Assembly: GCA_951804945.1 (NCBI GenBank)
Contig: OX638151.1
Coordinates: forward strand, 62,744,001-62,808,000
DNA: 64,000 nucleotides
Origin: Podarcis cretensis
Taxonomy: Eukaryota
Direction of reading: 5' to 3'
A program made the position numbers and the translations under genes. This document shows positions 12,800 through 62,036 of the stretch, piece by piece. The notes under the pieces are model-generated. The model made no database searches and was not told where the DNA came from. It worked only from the letters and a program-made list of their open reading frames with translations. Every line of letters starts with the position of its first letter. Position 1 is the stretch's first letter.

Positions 12800-14086
12800 T
12801 TTATTTATATCCCGCCCTCCCCAGCCGAAGCCGGGCTCAGGGCGGCTAACAACAATCAAACAATCAAAAAATCAGATAATCGCACATTCTAAAAATATTT
12901 CATTATAAAAATCAATTAAAATCAAATTAATGGCAACTGATTAAGCAAGATTCTGTGCAGGTTGCCAGAGGAGGGAGTCAGGCTGCACCCTGACCAAAGG
13001 CCTGGTGGAACAACTCTGTCTTGCAGGCCTTGCGGAAGGATGTCAGGTCCCGCAGGGCCCTAGTCTCTTGTGACAGAGCGTTCCACCAGATTGGAGCCGC
13101 AGCCGAGAAGGCCCTGGCTCTAGTTGAGGCCAGCCTAACCTCTCTGAGGCCTGGGACCTTGAGGATGTTATTATTTGCAGACCGTAGGTTTCTCTGTGGG
13201 GCATACCAGGAGAGGCGGTCCCGTAGGTACGAGGGTCCTAGGCCGTATAGGGCTTTAAAGGTTAAAACCAGCACCTTAAACCTGATCCTGTACTCCACCG
13301 GGAGCCAGTGCAGCTGGTATAGTACCGGATGAATGTGATCTCGCAGCGAAGACCCCATAAGGAGTCTCGCCGCAGCATTCTGCACCCGCTGGAGTTTCTG
13401 GGTCAGTCTCAAGGGCAGCCCCACGTAGAGCGAGTTACAATAATCCAGTCTGGAGGTGACCGTCGCATGGATCACAGTGGCTAGGTCAGGGCGAGAGAGA
13501 TAAGGGGCCAACTGCTTAGCTTGGCGGAGATGAAAAAATGCCGCCTTTGTTATAGCTGTAATCTGCGCCTCCATAGAGAGGGAGGTATCGAAGATTACAC
13601 CCAAACTCTTAACGGACGGTGCTGGCACTAATTGCACCCCCGCAAGAGATGGGAGTTGCCCCCTCAATCCCATATCGTCCCGCCCCAGCCAGAGGACCTC
13701 TGTCTTCGAAGGATTTAACTTCAACCGGCTCCCACGTAACCATCCAGCCACAGCTTCCAGACATCTCGCCAGTGTGTCTGGGGCCGAGTCAGGATGGCCA
13801 TCCATCAACAGATAGAGTTGGGTGTCATCAGCATACTGATGGCAACCCAGCCCAAAACTCCGGACAAGCTGGGCGAGGGGGCGCATAAAGATGTTAAAAA
13901 GCATCGGGGAGAGAATCGCACCCTGAGGCACTCCACACACCAAGGAGTGGCGCGATGACAATTCCCCCCCGAGCGCCACCCTCTGTCCCCGACCAGAGAG
14001 AAACGAGCGCAGCCATTGAAGGACTGTGCCCTGGATCCCCACGTCGGCAAGGCAGTGGTCCAGGAGTTCGTGATCGACCATGTCGA
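12756..14086 (-). mobile_element. Young 5'-truncated L2-clade LINE
   Basis: Open RT frame, 3' UTR and (TTA)n tail at 12757-12796. CpG-rich. Truncated within the RT FDxVDH motif. Confidence 0.93.
12978..14081 (-). CDS. L2 ORF2 fragment: non-LTR reverse transcriptase and C-terminal domain (5'-truncated, 367 aa)
   Basis: Motifs GVPQGAILSPMLFNIFM, HQYADDTQLY, LKLNPSKTE, SRLDYCNSL, LQRVQNAAAR, LHWLPVEYRIRFK. No endonuclease domain, so not autonomous. Confidence 0.9.
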   Translation of the reverse strand: MVDHELLDHCLADVGIQGTVLQWLRSFLSGRGQRVALGGELSSRHSLVCGVPQGAILSPMLFNIFMRPLAQLVRSFGLGCHQYADDTQLYLLMDGHPDSAPDTLARCLEAVAGWLRGSRLKLNPSKTEVLWLGRDDMGLRGQLPSLAGVQLVPAPSVKSLGVIFDTSLSMEAQITAITKAAFFHLRQAKQLAPYLSRPDLATVIHATVTSRLDYCNSLYVGLPLRLTQKLQRVQNAAARLLMGSSLRDHIHPVLYQLHWLPVEYRIRFKVLVLTFKALYGLGPSYLRDRLSWYAPQRNLRSANNNILKVPGLREVRLASTRARAFSAAAPIWWNALSQETRALRDLTSFRKACKTELFHQAFGQGAA

Positions 14087-17441: not shown

Positions 17442-18264
17442 TGTCAGAGCTGCCCAAGGTCCCAGCTCACAAAGGACCAACGCCAGTTCTTGCTATATAC
17501 AAAAGTCTTTATTAAGGTTCAGTTTCCATTTCAAAGCCGTGGCGTGCAGCTCTACGTCTCAACCCTAGACCGCTGAAGCTCCATCTGAATCTCCTCCCCC
17601 TCGACACCAGTTCAAGACCCTAGCCTTGCTCCACCTCCTCCTTTGCTCCTTTCTCCTCTGGGTCCTCCTGCCCGCTGGGGTGTCGCCCTTTCTGGACTCT
17701 TCTGATGCCGATTCCCCAGATTCTTCCCCCTGCTTCCGGCGTGCTTTAGGACCTGGCTCCCAATCCGACCTCCCTGCTGTCCCGCGCACCTGTACATTTG
17801 AACTTGGCGCGCGCGCCCAGCCGGCAACTTTCCTCCTGACCGTTACACTGCTCCTGTCACTGCTTCCCCCTTCGGGGGGGTTGGCTGGGTCTGACTTCCC
17901 CTCCGTTCCCTCACTCAGCGATAGGGGCGTGGTCAGCCCTGCCTCATCTTCTCTCCCCACTGGAGGGGAAGCCGGCCCTGACGCATGGGACTCTTCCCCC
18001 CCGCTACGCCCTGGTGGGGAAGCTGGTCCCGATCTCCAGCTGCTGCTTTGGGAGTCGCCGCTGGCCCCTTGCTTCTGGTGCGTCCTTCCCGGGACCCCCC
18101 TTGCCCTGGCCATCGGTGCCCCCTTCTGGGAATCTTCCGAATCGCTGGAGAAGCTCATGGAATCTCTCGGCCCACTGTCATACTCCCCTACGCTGCCCTC
18201 GGATTGTTCCCCTTCGCTCTCCGCTCTCTCTCTCCCCTGTGCCTCTGCTCCTGAACCCCTGACA
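17442..18264 (-). mobile_element. Solo LTR (probably Gypsy/Ty3-type), copy 1, 823 bp
   Basis: TGTCAG...CTGACA termini. 5-bp TSD ACAAC at 17437-17441 and 18265-18269. Minus-strand AATAAA at 17508-17513. Second copy at 41873-42698. Confidence 0.88.
17565..18263 (-). CDS. LTR-internal ORF: 232 codons, S/G/E/R-rich with a basic C-terminus, function unknown
   Basis: Frame is open from LTR nt 2 to TAG at 17565. About 75% aa identity by hand count, and equal length, to 41999-42697. Confidence 0.55.
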   Translation of the reverse strand, partial: VRGSGAEAQGRERAESEGEQSEGSVGEYDSGPRDSMSFSSDSEDSQKGAPMARARGVPGRTHQKQGASGDSQSSSWRSGPASPPGRSGGEESHASGPASPPVGREDEAGLTTPLSLSEGTEGKSDPANPPEGGSSDRSSVTVRRKVAGWARAPSSNVQVRGTAGRSDWEPGPKARRKQGEESGESASEESRKGDTPAGRRTQRRKEQRRRWSKARVLNWCRGGGDSDGASAV

Positions 18265-20269: not shown

Positions 20270-20758
20270 GTTCCAAAACCTAATCCGTTCCAGAAGTCCG
20301 TTCCAAAACCAAAGCGTTCCAAAACTAAGGTGCGCTTCCCCATAGAAAGTAATGCAAAATGGATTAATCCATTCCAGACTTTTAAAAACAACCCCTGAAA
20401 CAGCAATTTAACATGAAATTTACTATCTAACAAGACCATTGATCCATAAAACGAAAGCAATAATCAATGTACTGTACTATAAAATAAATAAGACAGCATT
20501 GTAGATGATTAAAGTTTTTTTAAAAAAAACCTTACCTACACTGATGATAGTCATTGTTTGGATGGGGGGGGGGCTTTTAACCATTTCCTCAGCCATACAA
20601 TCAATCAATCAGTAGCTTAACTGGCTTCCACACAGACACAAAAACAAATTAACCGAAAAAGCCTCAAAAACAAAACCACAAAATAAATAGCAAAAACAAA
20701 AGCGCCAAACTTAATCCATTCCGGAAGTCCATTTGACTTCCAAAATCTTCGAAAACCA

Positions 20759-21208
20759 GGCTGGCAGTAGACAATGGATGAACTTTGGGGATTGGAACCG
20801 GGGAATGGGGGGGGGGAGATTTGGAATCCAAAGGCTGTAAAATTATATATTATTTCTTTCTTTTCTTTTTTCATGTTTGTTGTTTGAAAATAGGGGAATT
20901 CGTGGAAGGGAAATGGGGTCGATCTTAGGGAATTATATAAAATATAAGGAGAAATGGTTCATTAAGATAAATAAGATAAATTAATTTGGAATAAATGGGT
21001 TATTTAAAATTACAAATAAGGTTTTAAAATTTGGGGTAAGAATCTGTGGAATCAATTTAAGGGAAATGGAATACAAGAGGGGGAGGGGGGGGAGTCCGGG
21101 AAAGATGCCACTGAAACCAAGTGTAAATCATATTTGTTTTTTCTTTTTTTCTTGCTATCTTTCCTTTTTATTCTGGAAAATTTTTAATAAATATTATTAA
21201 AAAAAAAA
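20759..21208 (+). mobile_element. 5'-truncated non-autonomous retroposon, probably L1-mobilised (element D; 3' part of the 60408-62036 family)
   Basis: Near-identical to ~61584-62036. AATAAA and poly(A). 17-bp TSD AAAATCTTCGAAAACCA at 20742-20758 and 21209-21225. Confidence 0.9.
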
Positions 21209-22380
21209 AAAATCTTCGAAAACCAAGGCTCAGCTTCAGGAGCCCCAGAAACAATAGCCGACAACTGCATTGAACGTTCAGCTTATTTCCAAGTTTTCAG
21301 CATTTGGGAACCAAGGTGTTTGAGAACCAAGGTAGCACTGTACAAAATATGAAAGATGTAACCTGCCTCTTAGGATCCATATTTTCTTACTCCTGTGTGT
21401 TGGTTGCGGACTGTTGCTGTTTTCTTCCATTCTGTGCCATCTCTATAAAATGACTTGAGATATGGTTTCAGATAACATTTATGTGAGGCAACCCATTCAC
21501 TCCACGTACCAAACAGTATTGTAAGACGGGTCAATGAAACATCACTCGCTGGTGATTTCTGAATAAATCAGCAGAAGATGAGAGAATTGTTTTAGCTCCC
21601 TGTGATTTCGCTCTTATCCATCTTTTTATATAATGAAGTTATATTTTATCCATCACTGTCATATTGGAAGGCAACCGCATCTTCTTTTGGGATTTGGCAT
21701 CCTCAGCCTACTACAAATTATATGCTTCCCAGCGAAAAGATCAATAATCAGCAAGGCATCCATTGAATCCTTAGAGGCAAAATGATCTAAAAGATAGAAA
21801 ACCGACATGCAGATTCTTATGGCAAGCACTCTGATCCCTGCTGTGCCAGTTTCACTCCATCGCCAGGACCAATTAAGTTGTCTGGTACTTTGCAGTAACA
21901 TACAAGTGGACAGTTGTAGATTTCTCTCATGACATCTTACCCACAACAATGAGGGTTAGAATCTTTCTTTTTTCCTTTTAAACGGAAGGCAAAATTTTAA
22001 GGGTTCGAAAAAGAGCTCACAGATGACAGAATATCTTTGGAACATAGAGGTTGCTCTGCCCTCCCTACTGTAAAAGGGGCAAATATAGCTGAGTCACTCT
22101 CCTATTATCTTAAAATAGAGGCACAAAAACTGGAAATACTACAAAAAGGGAACAAGCATGGACTGTCATCAATATGCGGAAAGGCAAGGAGAGGATATGA
22201 TTGACTGGACTGGAAAGAATGACAAGGGAGCAGTTGTGTATTCTCTCAAATGGTACTGGAAACTAGAGAGCATTCAATGAAATCAACACAGAGCACATTT
22301 AAAGCAAAAGAGCCCGTTCCATCACCGATCTGCCTCAGTATCGGCCGGCGAGCTGCATTTGCAACCTGTCTACCAAACAG

Positions 22381-36909: not shown

Positions 36910-39160
36910 TTTAAAAAATAATATTTATTAATATTTTAAAGACTGCAAAAGAAAGACAAAGAATTAAACAAAACAATACAATACAATACAATACAAAAAC
37001 TAAAACACCACACAACACCAACCCCCAAACATTAAATTAACAAAACCAAACAAACACAATTTAAAACACATCTAATAAGTTCAGTATCTTAACTTTTATT
37101 TACTTGTTTCAACGACCTCCTCACACCTCCCTTTTTGTATTTCACTTTAATTAACTGTTTCAGCAATTCCTTTCCATCTTCCTCTGTTTTCTGTCCTGTA
37201 ATTTATCTTAACATATTCTAACCTTATTTTTCCCTTTAATATATAATTGTCTTAACATATTTTAGCTTTATTTTCCCTTTAATACTCTAATAATCTATTT
37301 GTACTTAATTCCTTGTAACATTTCTACTAAAGCCATATAGCTCCTTTCCAACATTTTTCTAACACTCATTAATTTTACAATATTTTTATAAATAGTCTTT
37401 AAACTTTTTCCAATCTTCTTCCACCGACTCTTCTCCCTGGTCCCGGATTCTGCCAGTCATATCCGCCAATTCCCTATAGTCCATAAACCTGGTGATCTTC
37501 TGTCCGATGCTCTTAACTCTTTTCCAAGTCCCTTCTGCGAGTCTTCTTCATATTTATACATCGAACTTTACTTTGTCTTCCACTGATCTTATTTTCATTT
37601 TCCTTCCTTTAAGGCTAAAGAGTAGATCTCGGGGTAACTCCCACCTAAAGATGATTTTATTCCTTCTTGACAGGGCAACCAAATCTCCGTAGTTAAATCT
37701 AAGATCCGAAAGGTACTTCAGGACATCTTTCAAAATTTCCACTCTTGACTGTTGTTCTTCTAAGTTCCTCTGGTAGTTCCAACAGTCTCTTATTTTGTTC
37801 TTCTCTTTTTTCCCTCCTCTTCCAAGTCCGAGAGCCCTCACAGTTTTAATCTCTTCTTGACCCAAGTCCCGGTCCCAAAAGTCATCAAATTCCTGTGTAA
37901 GGAAATCTATCAAACTTCCCTTCTCCAGTTCAGGTAGGGCTCTGATCCTCAAAATCTGATTTTCTTTAAATTCAATCATAGCAGGCATCAACTTATGGTC
38001 ATCAAATTGCATCTGTAAGGCTGGGACTCTCTCTCTCTCCAATTGTGTTACTTTAGGTTCAACGGCAATAACTTTCTCCCTAGCCTTCTCCGCAGTTTGC
38101 CATGTCAAAGTAGATTCCTGTGTCAGTTTCTGAATAGTTTCTATATTGGTGTTCACTTTTTATCCCAAATTGTCAATTTTGGTAGTTACCACATCCACCT
38201 TTTTGTGAAGCTGTTCCAGTGAGTCACTTATCTTACATAATACAACGACTAAGGCCTCTTCTGTCAACATTCTTAACCGATTCAAGGTCCCCAGAATCTC
38301 ACAGGTTTTTATCTTGCAGCTGGAAATTCCCCCAGCTCAACTCTTGTGACAGTTTCAAAAGCTTCCTCTAGAGGGAAACAGTTCCTCTAGAGGGAAACAG
38401 TTTCTATTTGTATTAGTCCTTTTAAACTCAATTCAAACAATAAAGTTAGTTTCAATTTTCTGTTACTTTTACTCCATGGAAACAATGTATTCCTCTTATT
38501 TAACTAACTGTCAGTGAACGTTCTAATCACGGTCAGTCCTGTTGGCAGCCTGTTTCCAGCATCGGAGGGGTGGTATATTAACTCTGTTCGCTCTCTCCTG
38601 CAGGTATACTCAGTCCAAAACTTTCCCCCCTCTTCTCCTGCCACCAAGGGGGGTTTAGTATTTTTTACTGATGGAAATTTAGTTCTTTACAATAGGCTTT
38701 CCGAGACTTCAGCTTGCATCCTCATTGCTTCAATCTATTTACAAAAGGGGAAGGTGGACTTCCTGTTTTAGACCTCCCCGTTTCGGCACCAAATTAAGAC
38801 GTTTAAAAATCCAATTCTCCACTCTACTCACGGGTAGTTGCTTTAAGATCAAATTGTCCACAAGAAAAAGTCAGCGCTCTCCGGCAACAGCTATGCGGCT
38901 TCGCTCCATGGAAGAAGCAGTCAACTCGAAGCACCGCACCGCTCACCCTACGTCGCTCCGGATCCCCGAAACCGGGTTTCCCCGGGAGTAGGGGAGGCGC
39001 AAAAGGTGCCAGCTGAATCCCACGTTCACAGGCTTCACCCGCCTGTGATTTCTAGTGGGTCTCCGCCTTCGCCGTGGCGGCCAGACCCAGATTCCTACGA
39101 AGCAAATTCCTCCCGATCAGAGGAATTCCGCCATTACCGGAGGTGCTAACCCGGAAGTCC
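36910..39160 (-). mobile_element. Full-length internally deleted L1-derived non-autonomous retroposon (element A, ~2.25 kb)
   Basis: CpG-rich 5' UTR starting GGACTTCCGG, then an ORF1-like region, the tip of ORF2, a 3' UTR and an AATAAA/A-rich tail. TSD GTCCTTAAAAATTAGAATATT at 36889-36909 and 39157-39177. Confidence 0.88.
37554..38270 (-). pseudogene. L1 ORF1p-like remnant (coiled coil, RRM start, CTD)
   Basis: ATG at 38270 with an in-frame TAA at 38162-38160. Heptad-like region, LRIRALPE and FRWELPRDLLFSLKG motifs resemble vertebrate L1 ORF1p. Confidence 0.7.
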
Positions 39161-41872: not shown

Positions 41873-42698
41873 TGTCAGAGCTGCCCCTAGGTCCCAGCTC
41901 ACAGAGGACCAACGCCAGGCTGTAGTTATGTACAAAAGTCTTTATTGAGGTTCAGTTTCCATTTCAAAGCCGCAGTGCACAGCTCTACGTCTTAAAGCCT
42001 AGACCGGCGAAGTACCGTCTGAGTCTCCTCCCCTATGACACCAGTTTAAGATCCTAGCCCTGCTCCACCTTCTACGCTGCTCTCTCCTCCTCTGGGTCCT
42101 CCTGCCCGCTGGGGCATTGCCCTTTCTGGACTCTTCCGACGCTGAGTCGCTTAGCTCCTCCCCCTCCCTCCGGCGGGCTTTAGGACCCGGTTCCCAATCT
42201 TCATTCTCTGCTGTCCCGCGCTCCTGTACATTTGAACTTGCCTCTCGCGCCAACGTAGTGACCTTCCTCCTGACTGTTACACTACTTCTGTCACTGCTTC
42301 CCTCTTCCGGGATACTGGCCGGATCTGACCTCCCCTCCGTTGTCTGACTCTCCGATGGGGGTGTGGTCAGCCCTGCCTCATCTTCTCTCCCTGGTGGGGA
42401 ATGCACTGGCCCCGATCCTCGGGACTCTTCCCCCCCACTCTGCTCTGGTGGGGAAGCTGGTCCTGATTTCCAACTACTGCTCTGGGAGTCCCTGCTGCCC
42501 CCTTGCTCCTGGGGCGTTCCCCTTGGGAACCCCCTACCCTTGGCCACTGGCGCCCCCTTCTGTGAATCTTCCGATTCGCTGGAGAGGCTCATGGAATCCC
42601 TCAATCCACTGTCCTCTTCTCCTACGCTCCCCTCGGATTCTTCCCCTTCGCTCTCCATCTCCTCTCTTCCCTGTGCCTCTGCTCCTGAACCCCTGACA
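41873..42698 (-). mobile_element. Solo LTR copy 2, 826 bp
   Basis: TGTCAG...CTGACA termini. TSD GCGAG (41868-41872) / GTGAG (42699-42703), differing by one CpG transition. Minus-strand AATAAA at 41941-41946. Confidence 0.88.
41999..42697 (-). CDS. LTR-internal ORF, 232 codons (219 aa from ATG at 42658), homologue of 17565-18263
   Basis: Same length, same stop position and no frameshift relative to copy 1. Confidence 0.55.
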   Translation of the reverse strand, partial: VRGSGAEAQGREEMESEGEESEGSVGEEDSGLRDSMSLSSESEDSQKGAPVAKGRGFPRGTPQEQGGSRDSQSSSWKSGPASPPEQSGGEESRGSGPVHSPPGREDEAGLTTPPSESQTTEGRSDPASIPEEGSSDRSSVTVRRKVTTLAREASSNVQERGTAENEDWEPGPKARRREGEELSDSASEESRKGNAPAGRRTQRRREQRRRWSRARILNWCHRGGDSDGTSPV

Positions 42699-53940: not shown

Positions 53941-56516
53941 ATCTTTGCTTTATTTTTCAGTTTTTCAATTTGCAGGTTTAAGTTGTTAAAACATTCCGCA
54001 TTTTCTTCTACTCCCATTCTTCATAATCTTATACCTAAGTTTGTTTTCTAAAGCATCCAATTTATTTTTTCAGTTTTCTCATTTCATTTCCACCTTACTG
54101 ATCTAAAGATCTAAAGACTTGATCTTTGATCAACTGCAGAATAACCTATCAATTGTTGTTGTTGCTGTTGTTGTTTCCATACCACCCTTTGTCCAAGAAT
54201 CACAGGCACACACCAGTTTAAAAGGTCATAGGTTGTTTCATTAGCCAAAGGCCTAGGAGGAGGAGAATGTTTCTGCCAGGCACCAGGTAAGCCTCCATGG
54301 GGAGGGAGGCTTTCCACAAGTGGAGAGCCACTGCAGAAAAGGCCTGCTCTTGTGTTGCTACACTTTGGACCTCTTGTGGAGGAGGCACACAAAGAAGGGC
54401 CTCTGGTGATGATCAAAGGTGATGATCGCAGGGTGCAGATCGCCTCATTTGGGAAGAGCCAGCCCTTGACATTGAGAGACATCCAATTATGTCCACCCAC
54501 CTGCACAACAGAAATCCACTTGCACAATGGGAATTCCAGGTTCTCTCCATTCACCTTCACTCCAGCCCAGGGAACTTTCAGGACGGGGTTGCTGCCATGG
54601 ACATTATGTGAATGTCTATTTTAATGAGCGGAACAGAGTGGAAGATTATAAGTCATGGGGCTGTGGAGAGTGTGAACTTAACAATGCTTGGTTTATTTTT
54701 GGGTTGTTATTTTGTTAATGTTGTTAATATTGCTTTATAGATTATAAATGCTGTATTGATTTGTTAATTATATAATAGAACTTCTGCTTTAATTGTGGTG
54801 TTTAGCTTGTCTTTAGCTTGTTGCTTTGTTAACAGTGTTTTATAGATTGTAATTGTTTCATTGGTGATTTAATTATTCTATGTGATTCTTGCTGTATTTG
54901 TGATGGTCTATTATGTTGTATCATGTTATCATTGTTTGTAAGCCGCTTTGGGATTTATCTGAATGAAAAGCAGCATAGAAATATAATAAATCAAATAAAA
55001 GATGCATCACAAGGACTTTTCAGGTTCATCTTCTACTGGCACAGTCTGCATCACTGGGTCTTTTGTTTGTCTTTAAATTTGCTCAGAGGAGTTCTGAATG
55101 TTCTCCTTTGCACTGAGTGAACTCCTTTGCCCGTTATAAAGCTGAGCAGAGTGGAAGATCTACTGTCTGGTTTATCTCAAGGAAGTTGAATGCCTCCCTA
55201 TTTTAACAGTGCCTCCTTCACAGCTTACTAGCATTTGGGGTCTAAGCTGCTTTAGCTGTTGCTGACAAGCCTTTTGAGTTTTTCTACTGAATAACAACAG
55301 GACTGATAGGATTATGTTTTGGGCAATGCCTCCACCTTTTACCAGATCATAATATTCAAATATTTCTGTTGTGAGGGGCCATGTGATAGAGACATGTGAT
55401 ACTCATATTGCCCTTCTCATGTGGTCCCCAGTGGTTCCAAGGAAGAGGTAGATTGACCTGTTGTAATTTGGCAAATTTGGTTTCTATACTTACCTCTTCA
55501 GCAACTTATTAGTGCATTCTGACAACAGAATATTATGTGTGTGTACATATGTAGTTATATATAGTTAGATCAACTTGTTTGGAGTATTTAACAGATTGAT
55601 GGGAGTTTGTTTACTTTTGTTAAGTCTGATTAACTGAGCACAATATGAATTGTTGTAACTTTTTTATTGCTTGACTATGTCATACTGTGTAACATGTATT
55701 AACTCTATGGCAGTGTGTTGTTTAATTGAGAAGGTTTAACTATTCATGGTTAGGGAGAAGCTAAAATCCCAACTTATTTTCTGATACAACAGCTGCTTAG
55801 CTGGTATAACAGTGAGGATGCTACACTTACAGTTATATCTCAAGGATAAAAATTAATGGAAGTAATGAACAACGATACAACTGAGAAATATCTCTCCCTG
55901 TATGAGCCCACTGACCAGTTGAGATTCAGTCACTGACCTTGCTGTCCATTTCCCCCAGCTTCCCTTCTGTCCTCAGAGTCCCCTTCTCCTACGTATCTTC
56001 TTGCTTCCCAAACTCACCTACCCACTTTTTTCATAACTCCTGAAGACCCTTCTTTATATGCTTCCTTCAGAAAGACTTCACATCATTTTCCACAAAACTT
56101 AAACAGACGGATTTGTGCATGTATTTGTCTGGTCTGGTCGCTCAACTTTTGCAACCCTCCTGTCATGCCAGTAGGAATATTAGAAGGCATCATTTTGTTT
56201 TGCCCTGTATTTATCTCTTGCAGCACTGTTTCCATTCCACTGCAGTTTGGGGGGGAAACTACATTATTCATCCCAATGTCCACTGTGGCAAAATTACACC
56301 ATGTAAGTTATGCTACCATCTTTCATTCACCTCATTCATTTCAATGCAAAGGAAACAATGTAAATGGATGAAGATAATAATCAATTTCATAGTGTTTGCA
56401 GACTGAAAGCAGCAACCACGGCAAATTCCAATCGTATTCACTGGATTTATTTCCTTTCCAGACATGGGACAAATAAGCGGACACCAGCAATTCCCACTCC
56501 CTTGGGAATTATCCAA

Positions 56517-56850
56517 GACTTCCTGGTTAGCGCGATCGGCTAATGGCGGATTCCCTCCGAGCTCCGGAGGGAATCGGCTCTGCTGAAGACGGGTCCTACC
56601 GCGCCGGCGACGCGGGGACCCTCAGAAACCGCAGGCGCGGAAGCCTGCGGACTTGGTGACTCGGTGGGCACCTTTAAGCGCCCTCCCTGACCCACGAAGA
56701 GCCTTTTTAAAGGCTACGGAGAGGGTACGGGGAGCGGCGTGGTGCTGAGAGTAGACCGCTACTTCAGTGGAGCGAAGCCGCGTGCCATGGCCGGACAGCG
56801 CTGACTTTTTTCCCAAAATTCGGACTGGAAACAAATAACCCGTGAGTAGA
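56517..56850 (+). promoter_or_regulatory. Putative internal promoter and structured 5' UTR of element B
   Basis: ETS-like ACTTCC at the start and YY1-like AATGGCGG. Several hairpins covary with elements A and C. Conserved CCC|GTGAGT donor-like site at 56842. Confidence 0.6.
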
Positions 56851-57331
56851 ATGGAATTTGGACTTTAAAATCTATATCTTTGAATTCGGTACAACCGGGG
56901 GATGTGCTAAAGGGAAGTCCGCACCCCCCTATCTACAAACGATCTAAAGCAAGGATCGGTGGACTAAGGTGGAGAGTACTGTTTTTGGTGTTAGATAAAA
57001 AATATTTCCATGAGTTTGACAGAAGTCTTTGTGCTGGAGAGAAAGTGAGGAGTTTTGGAAGCTTTTGTGTAACCCCCCCTCCCGAACCCGGGAGCGTCCT
57101 GTGTGTGAGCCGGAGGAAAAAGAACAAGGAGTTTGACAGCTGTCAAAGGAGCTGTCAAACGGGCGGCTAAAATTTAAGAACTTTGTTATTTAATAACTTT
57201 CTGAACTAAAAGTGTTGCTTTTGAACTGAGGTGGCTGAAAACAACGTAGTCATAAACAACAAAGTAACGGGCTGTTGGAAAAGGACTATCAAGCAACTGT
57301 AATCCCCCTAGGGGGAACTAGAGACATTACA

Positions 57332-57904
57332 ATGGCTGCAGAGGGAAAATTACTGGTAGAGATAGAAAGAATGTTTTTTCTCGTGGGAATCCTGCAAGAG
57401 CAGAGTACGGCTATGAACAAAGAACTTATGACCTTGAATTCCAAAACAAACGACTCTGCTGAATGCATAAAGGATTTGCCTGATAAGGAATCTGCAGCTG
57501 AACCAGAAAAAACTTTTTTGGAACCGGTGGAGAGAAAAGAAGGAATGGAAAAAGTGCAGGAAAATATCAATCAGAAGCCCATATTGTCAGGAAATAAAGA
57601 AGAAGATCTTTGGATTACAAATCTGCGAAAGATGAGAAAGTTGAAGGAGGAAGTCCCGGGAGCACTTGGAATATTGGAATTCAAAAGAGTAAAGAAATAT
57701 GATTGGGACTTCCTCCTTGAGTATGGGAGATCAACTGACTTTTTGCAGCAACTGCTATTAAGTATCTTGGATGGAAGAAAATATGATGTGACTGAGATAG
57801 AATTCCTTCGAGACCTGAGGACCAACAAAAAGGGCTACCAACAAAATCGGCAGAGAGAGACTGACAGAGACTTGAAGGCCTCTGATGTGAGGAATCCGGG
57901 CTAG
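57332..57904 (+). CDS. Element-B ORF, 190 aa, unknown function (possibly a highly diverged or truncated ORF1)
   Basis: ACAATGG Kozak-like start and an intact frame. A decayed homologue is in element C (LSRICYLLGKLQKRS vs IERMFFLVGILQEQS; FKRTKK vs FKRVKK; DVDTPG vs DVRNPG). Confidence 0.6.
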   Translation: MAAEGKLLVEIERMFFLVGILQEQSTAMNKELMTLNSKTNDSAECIKDLPDKESAAEPEKTFLEPVERKEGMEKVQENINQKPILSGNKEEDLWITNLRKMRKLKEEVPGALGILEFKRVKKYDWDFLLEYGRSTDFLQQLLLSILDGRKYDVTEIEFLRDLRTNKKGYQQNRQRETDRDLKASDVRNPG

Positions 57905-59380
57905 GATAATTGCTTGGGAAGGGATGGAAACTGGGGTAGGGAGGGAGGGGAGAACAGAATTTCAAAATTTTATGATTTTTGTATTTGGCCATTATGACAT
58001 ATAATTAACAAAAATACAAAGGGAGAAATTCGTGGAAGGGTAATTAGGTCGACCTTAGGAAAAAAAAAGATTTAATGTTTAAAAGAGAATTGGATAAATT
58101 AAATTTGGATAAGTAAAAAGGATTAAGTTTAAAAATAACAATAATATGTTAAAGATGGGAGATAAGAACTTGCTGAACTAATTTTTGGAATTGGGATGTA
58201 TGAAGAGGGGGTGGGGGGAAGTCAGGGAAAGGGGGTAATGAAAATAAAAGTTTAAAAATATATATGTTTTGTTTTTGTTTTTGTTTTATAAAATGTGAAA
58301 ACCTAATAAAAAATTTATTTTAAAAAAAAAAGGGAATTATCCAATATCCTTATATTCCATGCAAGGTGCAGGAAGACAGAGGCAAAATGTTACCAGGAAT
58401 CACTCTTTTCTTCTGTGTGGATAGGTTTTGTTCCCTTTGAAGAGATCACCGATCACCTCTGAAAGGAAGCGAAGACCAAAACAGACGCTCATCAAAAGAG
58501 TGGAGTGCACACCAACCCATCAGCATTGCATATATACTGATACAAAGGGCCCTGGTGCTTTCTGTTTCCCATGAGTGATTTTTCTAGAAAAAGAAAAGAA
58601 AATAGGTGCCAGCCTGCACTAAGCAGTGCACTTCTCAAGGAAAGGTTTATAGAGTGGAAATATTTACTAAGAATAGCTGACCATGAAAATTCACTAGAGC
58701 ATCAAGACAGTTCTGTAGTTTGGGGAAAAACCTTTAGAAAGCACATTTTTAAAAGCAACAGAATAGATGATAGCTTGCAGAATGCAATTGTGCTGAAAAG
58801 AAAAAAGGTACAGTCTTCTAAAGAGTGGAAGTAATGTTGGTTTTCTGCATGATAAACAAAGTGGGAGCAAACGTACATTGCTACTCTTTAGGGCCCTTTT
58901 TGCTTGATCAACATGTTTCCTACTGCTTTTTAGCCTTACAGTCCAATCCAAACAATATTGATATTGGAATATCTCCCTGACAGTGTGAACCAAAGGATGT
59001 CTACTCAGTCCAATTAAGTTTGATAGCATTTGCGCACTTACATATGCACATTTATAGTATTGCAGATTGAATACTGGTTCAAACTGCATGGAATAGGATA
59101 GATGATTATCAATGGGACATGAAGTAGCCTTCAGACCATGAAATATTGATCAGACATGGTCTACTGTGTAAAAAAAAAAAGTTTGGTGTCTAGCCTATTT
59201 CTAACAACACGGCCTACTTGGGATAACCCATGTCTCATTATAGAAACCAGGCAGTCAGGTGGTACTGTCTGTATATAAAACTGTTGTCATATGCTAGATA
59301 GGTTTAGTCTAAACATAGCAAAGCTGCTCTCTTAAAACCTTACCCAAGAAGGGTTCCATGTGTTCACTGCTATATTTAAA

Positions 59381-60407: not shown

Positions 60408-62036
60408 AAAACCATGGGCGGAGATGCCCATGGACTTGGTGACTCGGTGGGCACCGTTTGCGCCCCCCCGACCCGCGAAGGAGCCTTTTTAAAGGCTGCG
60501 GAGCGGGTGACGGGGGGTGTGTGGTGCTGTGAGTCCAATGCTTCCCCTGCCCAGCGAAGCCGCATGCCATTCGGCGGAGAGCAACGACTTCTTCTTTGAA
60601 AATTTTGGATTTGGACTAAAAGGAACAACCCGTGAGTAAATTGATTGGACTTAAAAGGGAAATTTGATCTTTGAATTTGGAGCGAGCAGGGGGGGTGCAA
60701 AAAGGAAGTCCACCCCCCCCCCCCATTGTAGATGGCTCAACGCAAGGATTTGACAACTAAGATCGAGAGATGAACTTGTTTACCTGAAAAAAATTTTTAA
60801 CTTCACGAAGGGAAATTACAATAATTGTGCTGGAGGAGAAGACTGATTTGTGGGAACTAAAATGCAACCCCCCCGGGAACCGGGAACGATCCGCTATGAG
60901 AGACTGGTGAAGAGACACAGAAACTTTGACAGCTGTCAAAGTAGCTGTCAAAGCAGGAAAATAAAAGAGAACTTTGTTACGATGGCTTTGCTGGTTAGAT
61001 TTGTTACAATTTGGACATAAATTATTGGAAATAAAGGCAACAAGTTATTTGACTTTTGGGTCTGATTTTGAAAGAAATTAAGTTACCATATTCCCTCTAG
61101 AGGGAGGCTGGGACATTGCAACAGTAGCAGCAAGTGGAAAAATATTATGAATTTGAGCAGGATCTGTTATCTCTTGGGAAAGCTGCAAAAACGAAGCATT
61201 ATTTTGTCTACAGAGGTTTCTATACTAAAGGAGACAATGGATTTATCTATTGAAGAAAGGAAGGGACTTGACGCAAGTTATGTTCCTGAACAACAAAAGC
61301 CTCTGTGGAGAACAAGAAGTTTCTGAATTAGAAGGTTTCTGCAGCAGAACAGGAAAAAGCAACCTGAGGAATAAGAGCTGGACCAAATTTGAAGCCGGAG
61401 TATTTGGAACATCCAGACTTTAAAAGGACCAAGAAATAGAATTTAAGTTAGACTCTTAAACATAGAGGTCTGGATGGAAGAACAATGACTTTTTCTGAGA
61501 GTTTTTTCGAGATTGGACTTTCTGAAATTAAAAGCTATCAAAAGACGGCAAAGTGGAGTTGAGATATAGACGTGGATACACCAGGCTGGCAGTAGACAAT
61601 GGATGAACTTTGGGGATTGGAACCGGGGAATGGGGGGGGGGAGATTTGGAATCCAAAGGCTGTAAAATTATATATTATTTCTTTCTTTTCTTTTTTCATG
61701 TTTGTTGTTTGAAAATAGGGGAATTCGTGGAAGGGAAATGGGGTCGATCTTAGGGAATTATATAAAATATAAGGAGAAATGGTTCATTAAGATAAATAAG
61801 ATAAATTAATTTGGAATAAATGGGTTATTTAAAATTACAAATAAGGTTTTAAAATTTGGGGTAAGAATCTGTGGAATCAATTTAAGGGAAATGGAATACA
61901 AGAGGGGGAGGGGGGGGAGTCCGGGAAAGATGCCACTGAAACCAAGTGTAAATCATATTTGTTTTTTCTTTCTTTCTTGCTATCTTTCCTTTTTATTCTG
62001 GAAAATTTTTAATAAATATTATTTAAAAAAAAAAAA
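60408..62036 (+). mobile_element. Slightly 5'-truncated non-autonomous retroposon, probably L1-mobilised (element C, decayed ORF)
   Basis: Colinear with element B from hairpin 3 onward. Poly(A). 18-bp TSD AAGAAGGAGCCAGACAGT at 60390-60407 and 62037-62054. Confidence 0.9.

Follow-up and report, generated by a model that had tools for sequence, protein, structure and literature searches.

Vertebrate L1 5'UTRs are usually viewed as DNA promoters of fast turnover, and the mammalian ones cannot be aligned deeply enough for RNA structure. Compact folding of RNAs that are mobilised by L1 is known from the Alu domain of 7SL-derived SINEs. The closest described system to the locus analysed here is the clade-1 L1 of the anole, whose terminus reads GACTTCCGG and then ATGGCG (PMC5381506 section 9; Boissinot and Sookdeo 2016). 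Our comparisons refer to the available sections of this paper and of the others cited below; in those sections, motifs only are described for anole L1, no 5'UTR fold is given, and the words splice and hairpin are absent. Human L1 keeps a conserved 5'UTR donor, SD97, which is rarely used and at which splicing would be harmful (SpIREs; Larson et al. 2018, PMC5860796). According to the available text of the same report, mutation of this donor cuts the RNA about 5-fold, and the donor is explained by a RUNX3 site, with structural masking speculated only. The half-L1 (HAL1) elements of mammals consist of an L1 5'UTR and an ORF1-derived frame without ORF2 (PMC5753468). Ribozymes are also described: L1Tc has an HDV-like 5' ribozyme in which promoter DNA and RNA structure overlap (PMC3185411), and the twister-sister-like L1 ribozyme has a conserved internal loop and a CA cleavage site between two stems (PMC11620745).

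The window, a stretch of 64,000 nucleotides of Podarcis cretensis contig OX638151.1, holds three elements, A, B and C. Their common feature is the 5' head of a lizard L1 5'UTR, which is shared by ORF2-less derivatives (coordinates are those of the window):

56517 to 58331, plus strand: element B, a full-length ORF2-less L1 derivative of 1815 nt, with a poly(A) signal at 58305 and an A tail
56504 to 56516, plus strand: TSD of element B, 13 bp, with its second copy at 58332 to 58344
57332 to 57904, plus strand: ORF of B, 190 aa, open across B-like subfamilies, with weak likeness to ORF1-derived frames of other non-autonomous families
36910 to 39160, minus strand: element A, about 2250 nt, TSD of about 19 bp, 5' domain at 39159 to 38826
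38012 to 37554, minus strand: broken ORF1 remnant of A, 41% identical to the C-half of ORF1 of the autonomous relative L066
60408 to 62036, plus strand: element C, 5'-truncated at helix P5, with an 18-bp TSD and without a long ORF
60408 to 60637, plus strand: domain remnant of C (model positions 107 to 332)
20755 to 21212, plus strand: C-family 3' fragment with its own TSD, 99.6% identical to C

ORF2 is absent from A, B and C, and all three end in a poly(A) signal and tail. Their ORF states differ: a broken ORF1 remnant in A, an open frame in B and no long ORF in C. The family of B is young and of high copy number (99-100% identity in 40/40 scored genome matches). The same 5' head is found, in many subfamilies, on elements that have both ORF1 and ORF2, the latter of the endonuclease-RT type (L066, L067, L061). 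The ORF2 of L066 and L067 matches PF03372 (E 4e-12) and PF00078 (E 1.5e-38), with ORF1 closely upstream; in L067-like autonomous copies ORF1 starts at about +920 to +960, behind a long 5'UTR. Pfam L1 ORF1 models gave no match in the autonomous relatives, and a search with PF02994 returned zero in the genome and zero in the controls as well. The terminus pattern, GACTTCCGG then ATGGCG, has 3887 genome matches versus 1 in the control, and a pattern that combines two motifs of the fold's 3' portion occurs at 1823 genome places versus 0; many of the copies that bear the head are 1.5-2.7 kb long and lack ORF2.

The likeness to anole clade-1 L1 extends to the type of terminus, a long 5'UTR (0.8-1.5 kb), a head that is a CpG island and conservation across families (PMC5381506, available sections). 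Here the domain has a GC content of 0.59 and a CpG o/e of 0.94, and the spacer between the two terminus motifs is longer than in the anole consensus of that paper. Compared by eye, most of the clade-1 consensus sequences of that paper show, in their first 400 letters, a hairpin after ATGGCG, in the same plan and with different letters. They also show complementarity to the 5' end near +250-290 and a GT(A/G)AG after an A-rich linker, a likeness tempered by the roughly 0.8 sites of this type expected by chance per 400 nt. The sharing of the head with ORF2-bearing L1s and the anole-type terminus identify the feature as an L1 5'UTR head, and A, B and C as HAL1-like elements that derive from a clade-1-type L1 of lizards. 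In common with HAL1, they and many relatives have an L1 5'UTR, a TSD and poly(A) without ORF2, in several independent-looking lineages, as is the case for HAL1 in the available text of PMC5753468. In contrast to HAL1, some high-copy families here are also without an ORF, and the frame of B is short and barely recognisable. The first-pass annotation had ascribed the fold to non-autonomous retroposons as such, and this ascription falls, as the head belongs to the autonomous L1 5'UTR. An Alu-like invention for the capture of ORF2p, also put forward there, is unsupported for the same reason. The resemblance to the Alu domain lies in a compact fold, a possible loop pseudoknot and an RNA mobilised by L1, whereas the domain here derives from L1 itself and is also present in autonomous elements. 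The SRP family gave no Rfam match at gathering score or at E up to 10.

Further observations concern these elements and their neighbours. The 190-aa frame of B has no significant Pfam match and no direct ORF1 match, and is 23-34% identical to ORF1-derived frames of other families. In B-like subfamilies (L038, L040, L049, L050, L070, L073) the corresponding short ORF is open at 174-214 aa, with its first and last residues conserved and its middle down to about 30% identity, a pattern that suggests selection on a small ORF1-derived protein. The 5' domain of B groups with the autonomous L066/L194 families, while its ORF resembles only ORFs of non-autonomous families across the tree (the L050/L171/L192 side); a 5'UTR swap in the B lineage is possible. 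A perfect 16-bp palindrome, partly repeated, stands in the leaders of B (57132-57147) and C (60925-60940); contigs of related organisms pile up at it, and we presume a resemblance to a MEIS/TGIF dimer site. A conserved 3'UTR block in B (58020-58060) and C (61720-61757), with deep coverage by contigs of related organisms, is followed by a G-rich tract ahead of the poly(A) signal. Elsewhere in the genome, L085-L094 are near-identical L1 copies with a TGA stop within each ORF1, near the ends of contigs (C1, C3, C6, C7, C9 and probably others), and were probably spread by subtelomeric duplication and not by transposition. Two related open frames rich in Ser, Gly and Arg lie in GC-rich stretches on the minus strand (17565-18158, 197 aa; 41999-42658, 219 aa) and are probably two copies of another repeat. 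An unrelated LINE is represented by a 367-aa reverse transcriptase frame at 12978-14081 on the minus strand (PF00078, E 3.5e-20).

Averaging of single-sequence pair probabilities gives the architecture of the head, in which nt 11-288 are predicted to form a closed RNA domain with two junctions. The layout is fixed: a 10-nt 5' tail, the closed domain, a linker of 33-43 nt and a donor motif. Its parts in element B are:

56517 to 56526, plus strand: 5' tail of 10 nt, with a motif that we take to be ETS-like, complementary to the donor site and to 56913-56919; its start is as in anole clade-1 L1 (PMC5381506 section 9)
56527 to 56804, plus strand: predicted closed RNA domain, with P1, a 3-way junction (P2, P3) and a 4-way junction (P4, P5, P6)
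56527 to 56547 with 56785 to 56804, plus strand: P1 (nt 11-31 to 269-288), containing the YY1-like AATGGCGG and its AUG
56549 to 56575, plus strand: P2 (hairpin 1), pair kept in 5/6 double changes
56577 to 56587 with 56763 to 56773, plus strand: long-range helix P3, pair kept in 12/13 double changes; E = 0.007 for 56583:56767
56591 to 56621, plus strand: P4 (hairpin 2), whose loop CGGC (56605-56608) is the candidate pseudoknot partner of 56777-56780
56629 to 56650, plus strand: P5 (hairpin 3), pair kept in 10/10 double changes
56658 to 56753, plus strand: P6/P7, a long irregular stem with a purine-rich internal loop and a tip hairpin at 56698-56717
56777 to 56781, plus strand: junction strand J3/1, near-invariant, candidate pseudoknot
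56838 to 56848, plus strand: 5' splice-site motif ACCC|GTGAGTA, GT at 56842, invariant, about 37 nt after P1
56842 to 57311, plus strand: AUG-poor leader, from the donor motif to the acceptor-like palindrome, including a hairpin with a second ETS-like motif (56913-56919)
57304 to 57315, plus strand: acceptor-like short palindrome (AG at 57310-57311); also at 61093-61104, with a duplicated copy near 38395-38365 on the minus strand

The folding energy of the 5' domain is -166 kcal/mol in B (56517-56850; z = -5.9) and -147 kcal/mol in A (z = -3.6), with 0/100 shuffles as stable in either case. The three hairpins of B, their equivalents on the minus strand in A, hairpin 3 of C (60412-60433) and the long stem with its tip hairpin lie where they had been placed at first reading. 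The long-range closing helices P1 and P3, which were absent from that list of stems, hold both of the pairs that reach significance in the all-pairs test described below. The covariation claimed for the named stems stood for hairpins 1 and 3 and for the proximal part of the long stem (4/4 double changes pair-keeping in P6a and 5/5 in P6b, versus 0/6 in P6c-e and 1/2 in P7, in the sequence-only alignment). It did not stand for hairpin 2, where 1/3 double changes keep the pair and the support is conservation with little covariation.

For the covariation tests, 144 distinct full heads were gathered into 43 clusters (mean identity 71%, minimum 54%), and one real copy per cluster was aligned by sequence alone. 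The tests are custom scripts, R-scape-like, and all sequences come from one genome. In the RNAalifold consensus of the 43 representatives, 33 of the 61 pairs show a double change; in the averaged structure 48/93 do, and 91.5% of its cells pair versus 41-44% when partners are slid by 1-3 columns. An alignment of 101 matches fitted to the model, and biased towards it, gave 93.2% pairing and a double change in 60/93 pairs. Mapped on a tree of the 43 subfamilies, 53 double changes keep the pair, 16 of them of the transversion type, versus 5.6 in a null of reshuffled partners (maximum 14.6 of 500); on internal branches the figures are 21 and 1.6. A non-circular test, which takes the fold of B itself and counts only branches off the path of B, gave 50/65 pair-keeping changes versus 6.7, and in 31 of these 50 the partners are separated by more than 60 nt. 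With pairs taken from five other single-sequence folds, 32-49 double changes kept the pair, and within the nine-tip non-autonomous B/C clade 16/19 double changes keep the pair versus about 1 in the null. In the all-pairs G-test, which uses a tree null, no pair reached E < 0.05 when the 43 representatives were used (best paired E = 1.4). With 68 representatives (of 70, two were removed for an internal deletion or a lost donor) it found two long-range pairs, 56583:56767 and 56539:56791, and a two-set test on the same 68 placed 5/112 pairs of B at E < 0.05. Support is uneven among helices, strong for P1b, P2, P3, P5 and P6a-b and weak for P4, distal P6 and P7. Covarying pairs are thus present after phylogenetic correction, in support of the first-pass proposal that an RNA fold some 300 nt long is under selection; we hold the existence of a selected RNA fold to be highly probable.

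The strand comparison indicates that RNA is the likely selected substrate, with moderate support. The sense strand folds at lower energy in 40/43 representatives, the covariation term is 7.25 for sense versus 3.43 for antisense, and compensated pairs are more numerous on the sense strand in 6/6 test folds (32-50 versus 12-41). A-U pairs change to G-U rather than to A-C (31 versus 16, p = 3e-5 against the unpaired background). For G-C pairs, changes to G-U do not exceed the background (p = 0.33), and in the subset of 28 proven pairs the A-U to G-U excess falls short of significance.

A tertiary contact may be present as well. The CGGC of the P4 loop is complementary to the conserved GCCG at 56777-56780, and the middle pair, G-C, is changed to A-U in whole subfamilies. 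Both changes are found in 178 copies, and nearly all of the 100 listed come from few subfamilies. The loop change alone is found in 188 copies that are scattered over families, as CpG decay predicts; one four-copy group with the loop change alone, among 100 listed, is a counter-example. On the tree, two G-C to A-U events were mapped (p = 0.0036, for a state chosen beforehand by inspection), and in the first alignment the pseudoknot helix was not clearly above shuffles. The pseudoknot is weakly supported, and we see its being real or not as evenly balanced. As a candidate, it suggests a defined three-dimensional shape that may bind a protein.

The donor motif lies at a nearly constant distance from P1 (33-43 nt; 37-38 nt in 41/64 measured). 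Its ACCC and GT are unchanged on internal branches, whereas the surrounding linker changes fast. The sole fixed variant seen is GTAAGT, and position +7 is A in 186/187; both features are compatible with U1 pairing. An acceptor-like palindrome stands at about +680 to +920 in 39/43 clusters, just upstream of the ORF start, and no use of it as an acceptor was seen. Spliced retrocopies were not found in the genome: the junction pattern has 57 matches versus 54 in the control, 5/57 listed belong to the element, and both of the 2 checked are point changes. In RNA-like runs, which are presumed RNA of related organisms in assembled contigs, the contigs of 4/4 read through the donor, and no GT-AG joint was seen among the matches listed; 54 loose-end matches and 11 joint matches lie outside this listing. 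A functional 5'UTR intron was considered and rejected: no spliced retrocopy was found, no GT-AG joint is among the matches listed, and the segment is depleted in AUG, which argues that it stays in the mRNA. Human L1 resembles the lizard element in having a conserved 5'UTR donor that is hardly used. It differs in that spliced retrocopies amount to about 2% there and none were found here, and that no conserved fold is shown around SD97 in the available text (PMC5860796).

Downstream of the donor, ATG is the most depleted of the 64 trimers in autonomous leaders (41 versus 131 expected; CAT, 61 versus 65). The AUG count is below expectation in 38/39 elements (mean identity 55%). The depletion is absent from 3'UTRs (120 versus 110) and flanks (121 versus 121), so that the unspliced leader looks scanned by ribosomes. 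The domain interior is also AUG-poor (11 versus 48), and the AUG of the YY1-like motif in P1 opens a frame of 5-7 codons in 25/43 representatives. The second ETS-like motif is the reverse complement of the first seven bases of the element, is the same in 40/43 representatives and lies in or beside the loop of a G-rich/C-rich hairpin (56895-56930, about +400); candidate roles are an inverted site in the DNA and, in the RNA, a pairing partner for the 5' tail. No consensus of this +400 hairpin was obtained by RNAalifold from an alignment in which the G/C runs slip and one row is misaligned.

The domain matches no described RNA family. Rfam returned 0 matches at gathering score in the window, and at E up to 10 only weak unrelated ones. 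An earlier failure to fit a known ribozyme topology was repeated here for the HDV-like and hammerhead types. A loose descriptor of the HDV-like core (a nested double pseudoknot from +1) hit 14/24 sequences, in scattered fashion, versus 11/24 shuffles, and was rejected. The hammerhead core, CUGAnGA...GAAA, was rejected likewise, being found in 3/70 representatives only. For the twister-sister-like type there was no Rfam match, and no CA among the conserved unpaired columns listed. Of 185 ends, 57 have a clear duplication, and their 5' junctions are ragged, with one to three G in 23/57, nothing in 10/57 and other letters in 24/57. Such ragged, G-rich junctions fit capped transcripts and speak against self-cleavage. 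The L1Tc and twister-sister-like ribozymes share with this domain a structured RNA at or in an L1-type 5'UTR; in the available text they are 35-77 nt long with defined catalytic cores, whereas the domain is about 280 nt long and its 5' ends are ragged (PMC3185411, PMC11620745). With respect to earlier description, the terminus is that of the published anole clade-1 L1, and the available sections of PMC5381506 contain no fold and Rfam no family for it. No description of the fold was found in the literature searched, a scope that leaves subscription journals, Repbase and Dfam outside. The L1 terminus is therefore known, and what is new is a well-supported, apparently undescribed RNA domain on a known kind of element.

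As to function, the fold acts in cis, for its repair continues in lineages that lack ORF2 and probably any ORF at all. The constant geometry (cap, tail, domain, linker, U1-type site), together with the literature on Restrictor and the cap-binding complex, leads us to judge a cap-U1 scaffold the most likely role, as a tentative proposal that falls short of probable: the domain would hold the cap next to an apparently unspliced U1 site and so license full-length unspliced transcripts. The GC-rich internal promoter would have to be carried in the RNA, and folding would pack this promoter copy away. With P1 closed, the cap-to-donor path would measure about 50 nt instead of 325 nt. The cap-binding complex could then aid the loading of U1 snRNP near the cap, and U1, with no splicing involved, would protect the A-rich transcript, which has no intron, against early termination. 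The unspliced RNA would be scanned by ribosomes and then serve as template for insertion. In the available section 6 of PMC12211998, a 5' splice site blocks Restrictor without splicing, and more strongly near the start; assistance of U1 loading by the cap-binding complex is described in PMC7462061. The conserved inner junctions are unexplained by a purely spacing role of the domain. Alternatively to a U1 site, the donor motif could be a site for a DNA-binding factor, by analogy with RUNX3 over the human L1 donor (PMC5860796).

Besides the cap-U1 scaffold, a role in translation has to be considered, in which the domain docks the small ribosomal subunit, or shunts it so that it skips the GC-rich head with its upstream AUG and arrives on the AUG-poor leader; in families without an ORF it would be kept as a ribosome contact that helps the RNA meet ORF2p. 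The confinement of AUG depletion to the leader, the short frame opened by the P1 AUG and the hint of a tertiary fold in the candidate pseudoknot are in accord with such a role. We nevertheless consider it unlikely: families without a long ORF keep the fold and go on repairing it (pair 68:274 turned from C-G into G-C on the branch of C, and 128:144 was repaired in the ancestor of C and L041), the AUG-poor interior fits plain scanning through the domain, and no IRES family is among the Rfam matches. More doubtful still is a packaging or integration signal, by which the domain would bind ORF1p or ORF2p, or present the RNA 5' end for complete reverse transcription and joining. R2 has a structured 5' RNA with packaging and integration roles, and a cis-acting fold under selection in ORF2-less lineages, with truncations within the domain (C at P5; L031, L039, L059), could be understood in this manner. 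Such a signal leaves the fixed spacing between domain and donor unexplained, however, and human L1 retrotransposes without its 5'UTR under a CMV promoter. CMV-driven human L1 constructs appear in the available text of PMC5860796.

The complementarity between the 5' tail and the donor (9/10 bases, both strands near-invariant) raises the prospect that the tail masks the donor as an anti-U1 strand (a helix P0), perhaps switching to the complementary loop at about +400, which pairs with the tail about equally well. Masking was proposed, untested, for human L1 (PMC5860796), and one 10-copy family here has an A-U compensation. It is nonetheless improbable, as the probability of P0, 0.70 in RNA that ends at the donor, is down to 0.12 and 0.03 after extension by 40 and 70 nt (21/42 representatives folded), P0 wins in 1/43 folds extended by 135 nt, no pair-keeping double change maps to it on the tree, and the same position is mismatched in more than ten other subfamilies. 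That the stems lack RNA function and are a by-product of a palindromic CpG-island promoter, or of template switching at reverse transcription, is a lesser prospect again. The domain is indeed a CpG island with ETS- and YY1-like motifs, and antisense folds gain compensated pairs too, but compensated partners lie 184 and 252 nt apart, bulges and G-U pairs have been retained (one G-U in 41/43) and the sense strand is favoured in all of the test folds. The least credible of these readings is a ribozyme, a role raised in the first-pass annotation; it would be of a new, self-cleaving type and would trim the 5' end. Conserved junction strands, the candidate pseudoknot and the 5' ribozymes of other non-LTR elements (L1Tc, PMC3185411) speak for it, and the failure of Rfam and of the HDV and hammerhead searches, with the ragged 5' junctions, makes it very unlikely.

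The presence of one head on dozens of diverged subfamilies in a single genome provides comparative evidence that selection acts on the transcript of the promoter as an RNA domain, also where the element encodes no protein. Speculatively, and with less confidence than the scaffold itself, amniote-type L1s with long 5'UTRs may carry an unrecognised tertiary RNA domain, its shape kept from the anole to this lizard despite sequence turnover, that couples the cap to a decoy U1 site; the intron-less RNA would thereby pass as an mRNA bearing a first exon and escape early-termination surveillance. If this is true, dozens of subfamilies that evolve in parallel would make the lizard L1 the first among vertebrates in which such a domain can be read by covariation and tested by compensatory mutation. 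The domain is a candidate Rfam family that could mark the starts of full-length L1 and HAL1 in lizards, and it makes testable the question of why L1 retains a 5'UTR splice donor that it hardly uses.
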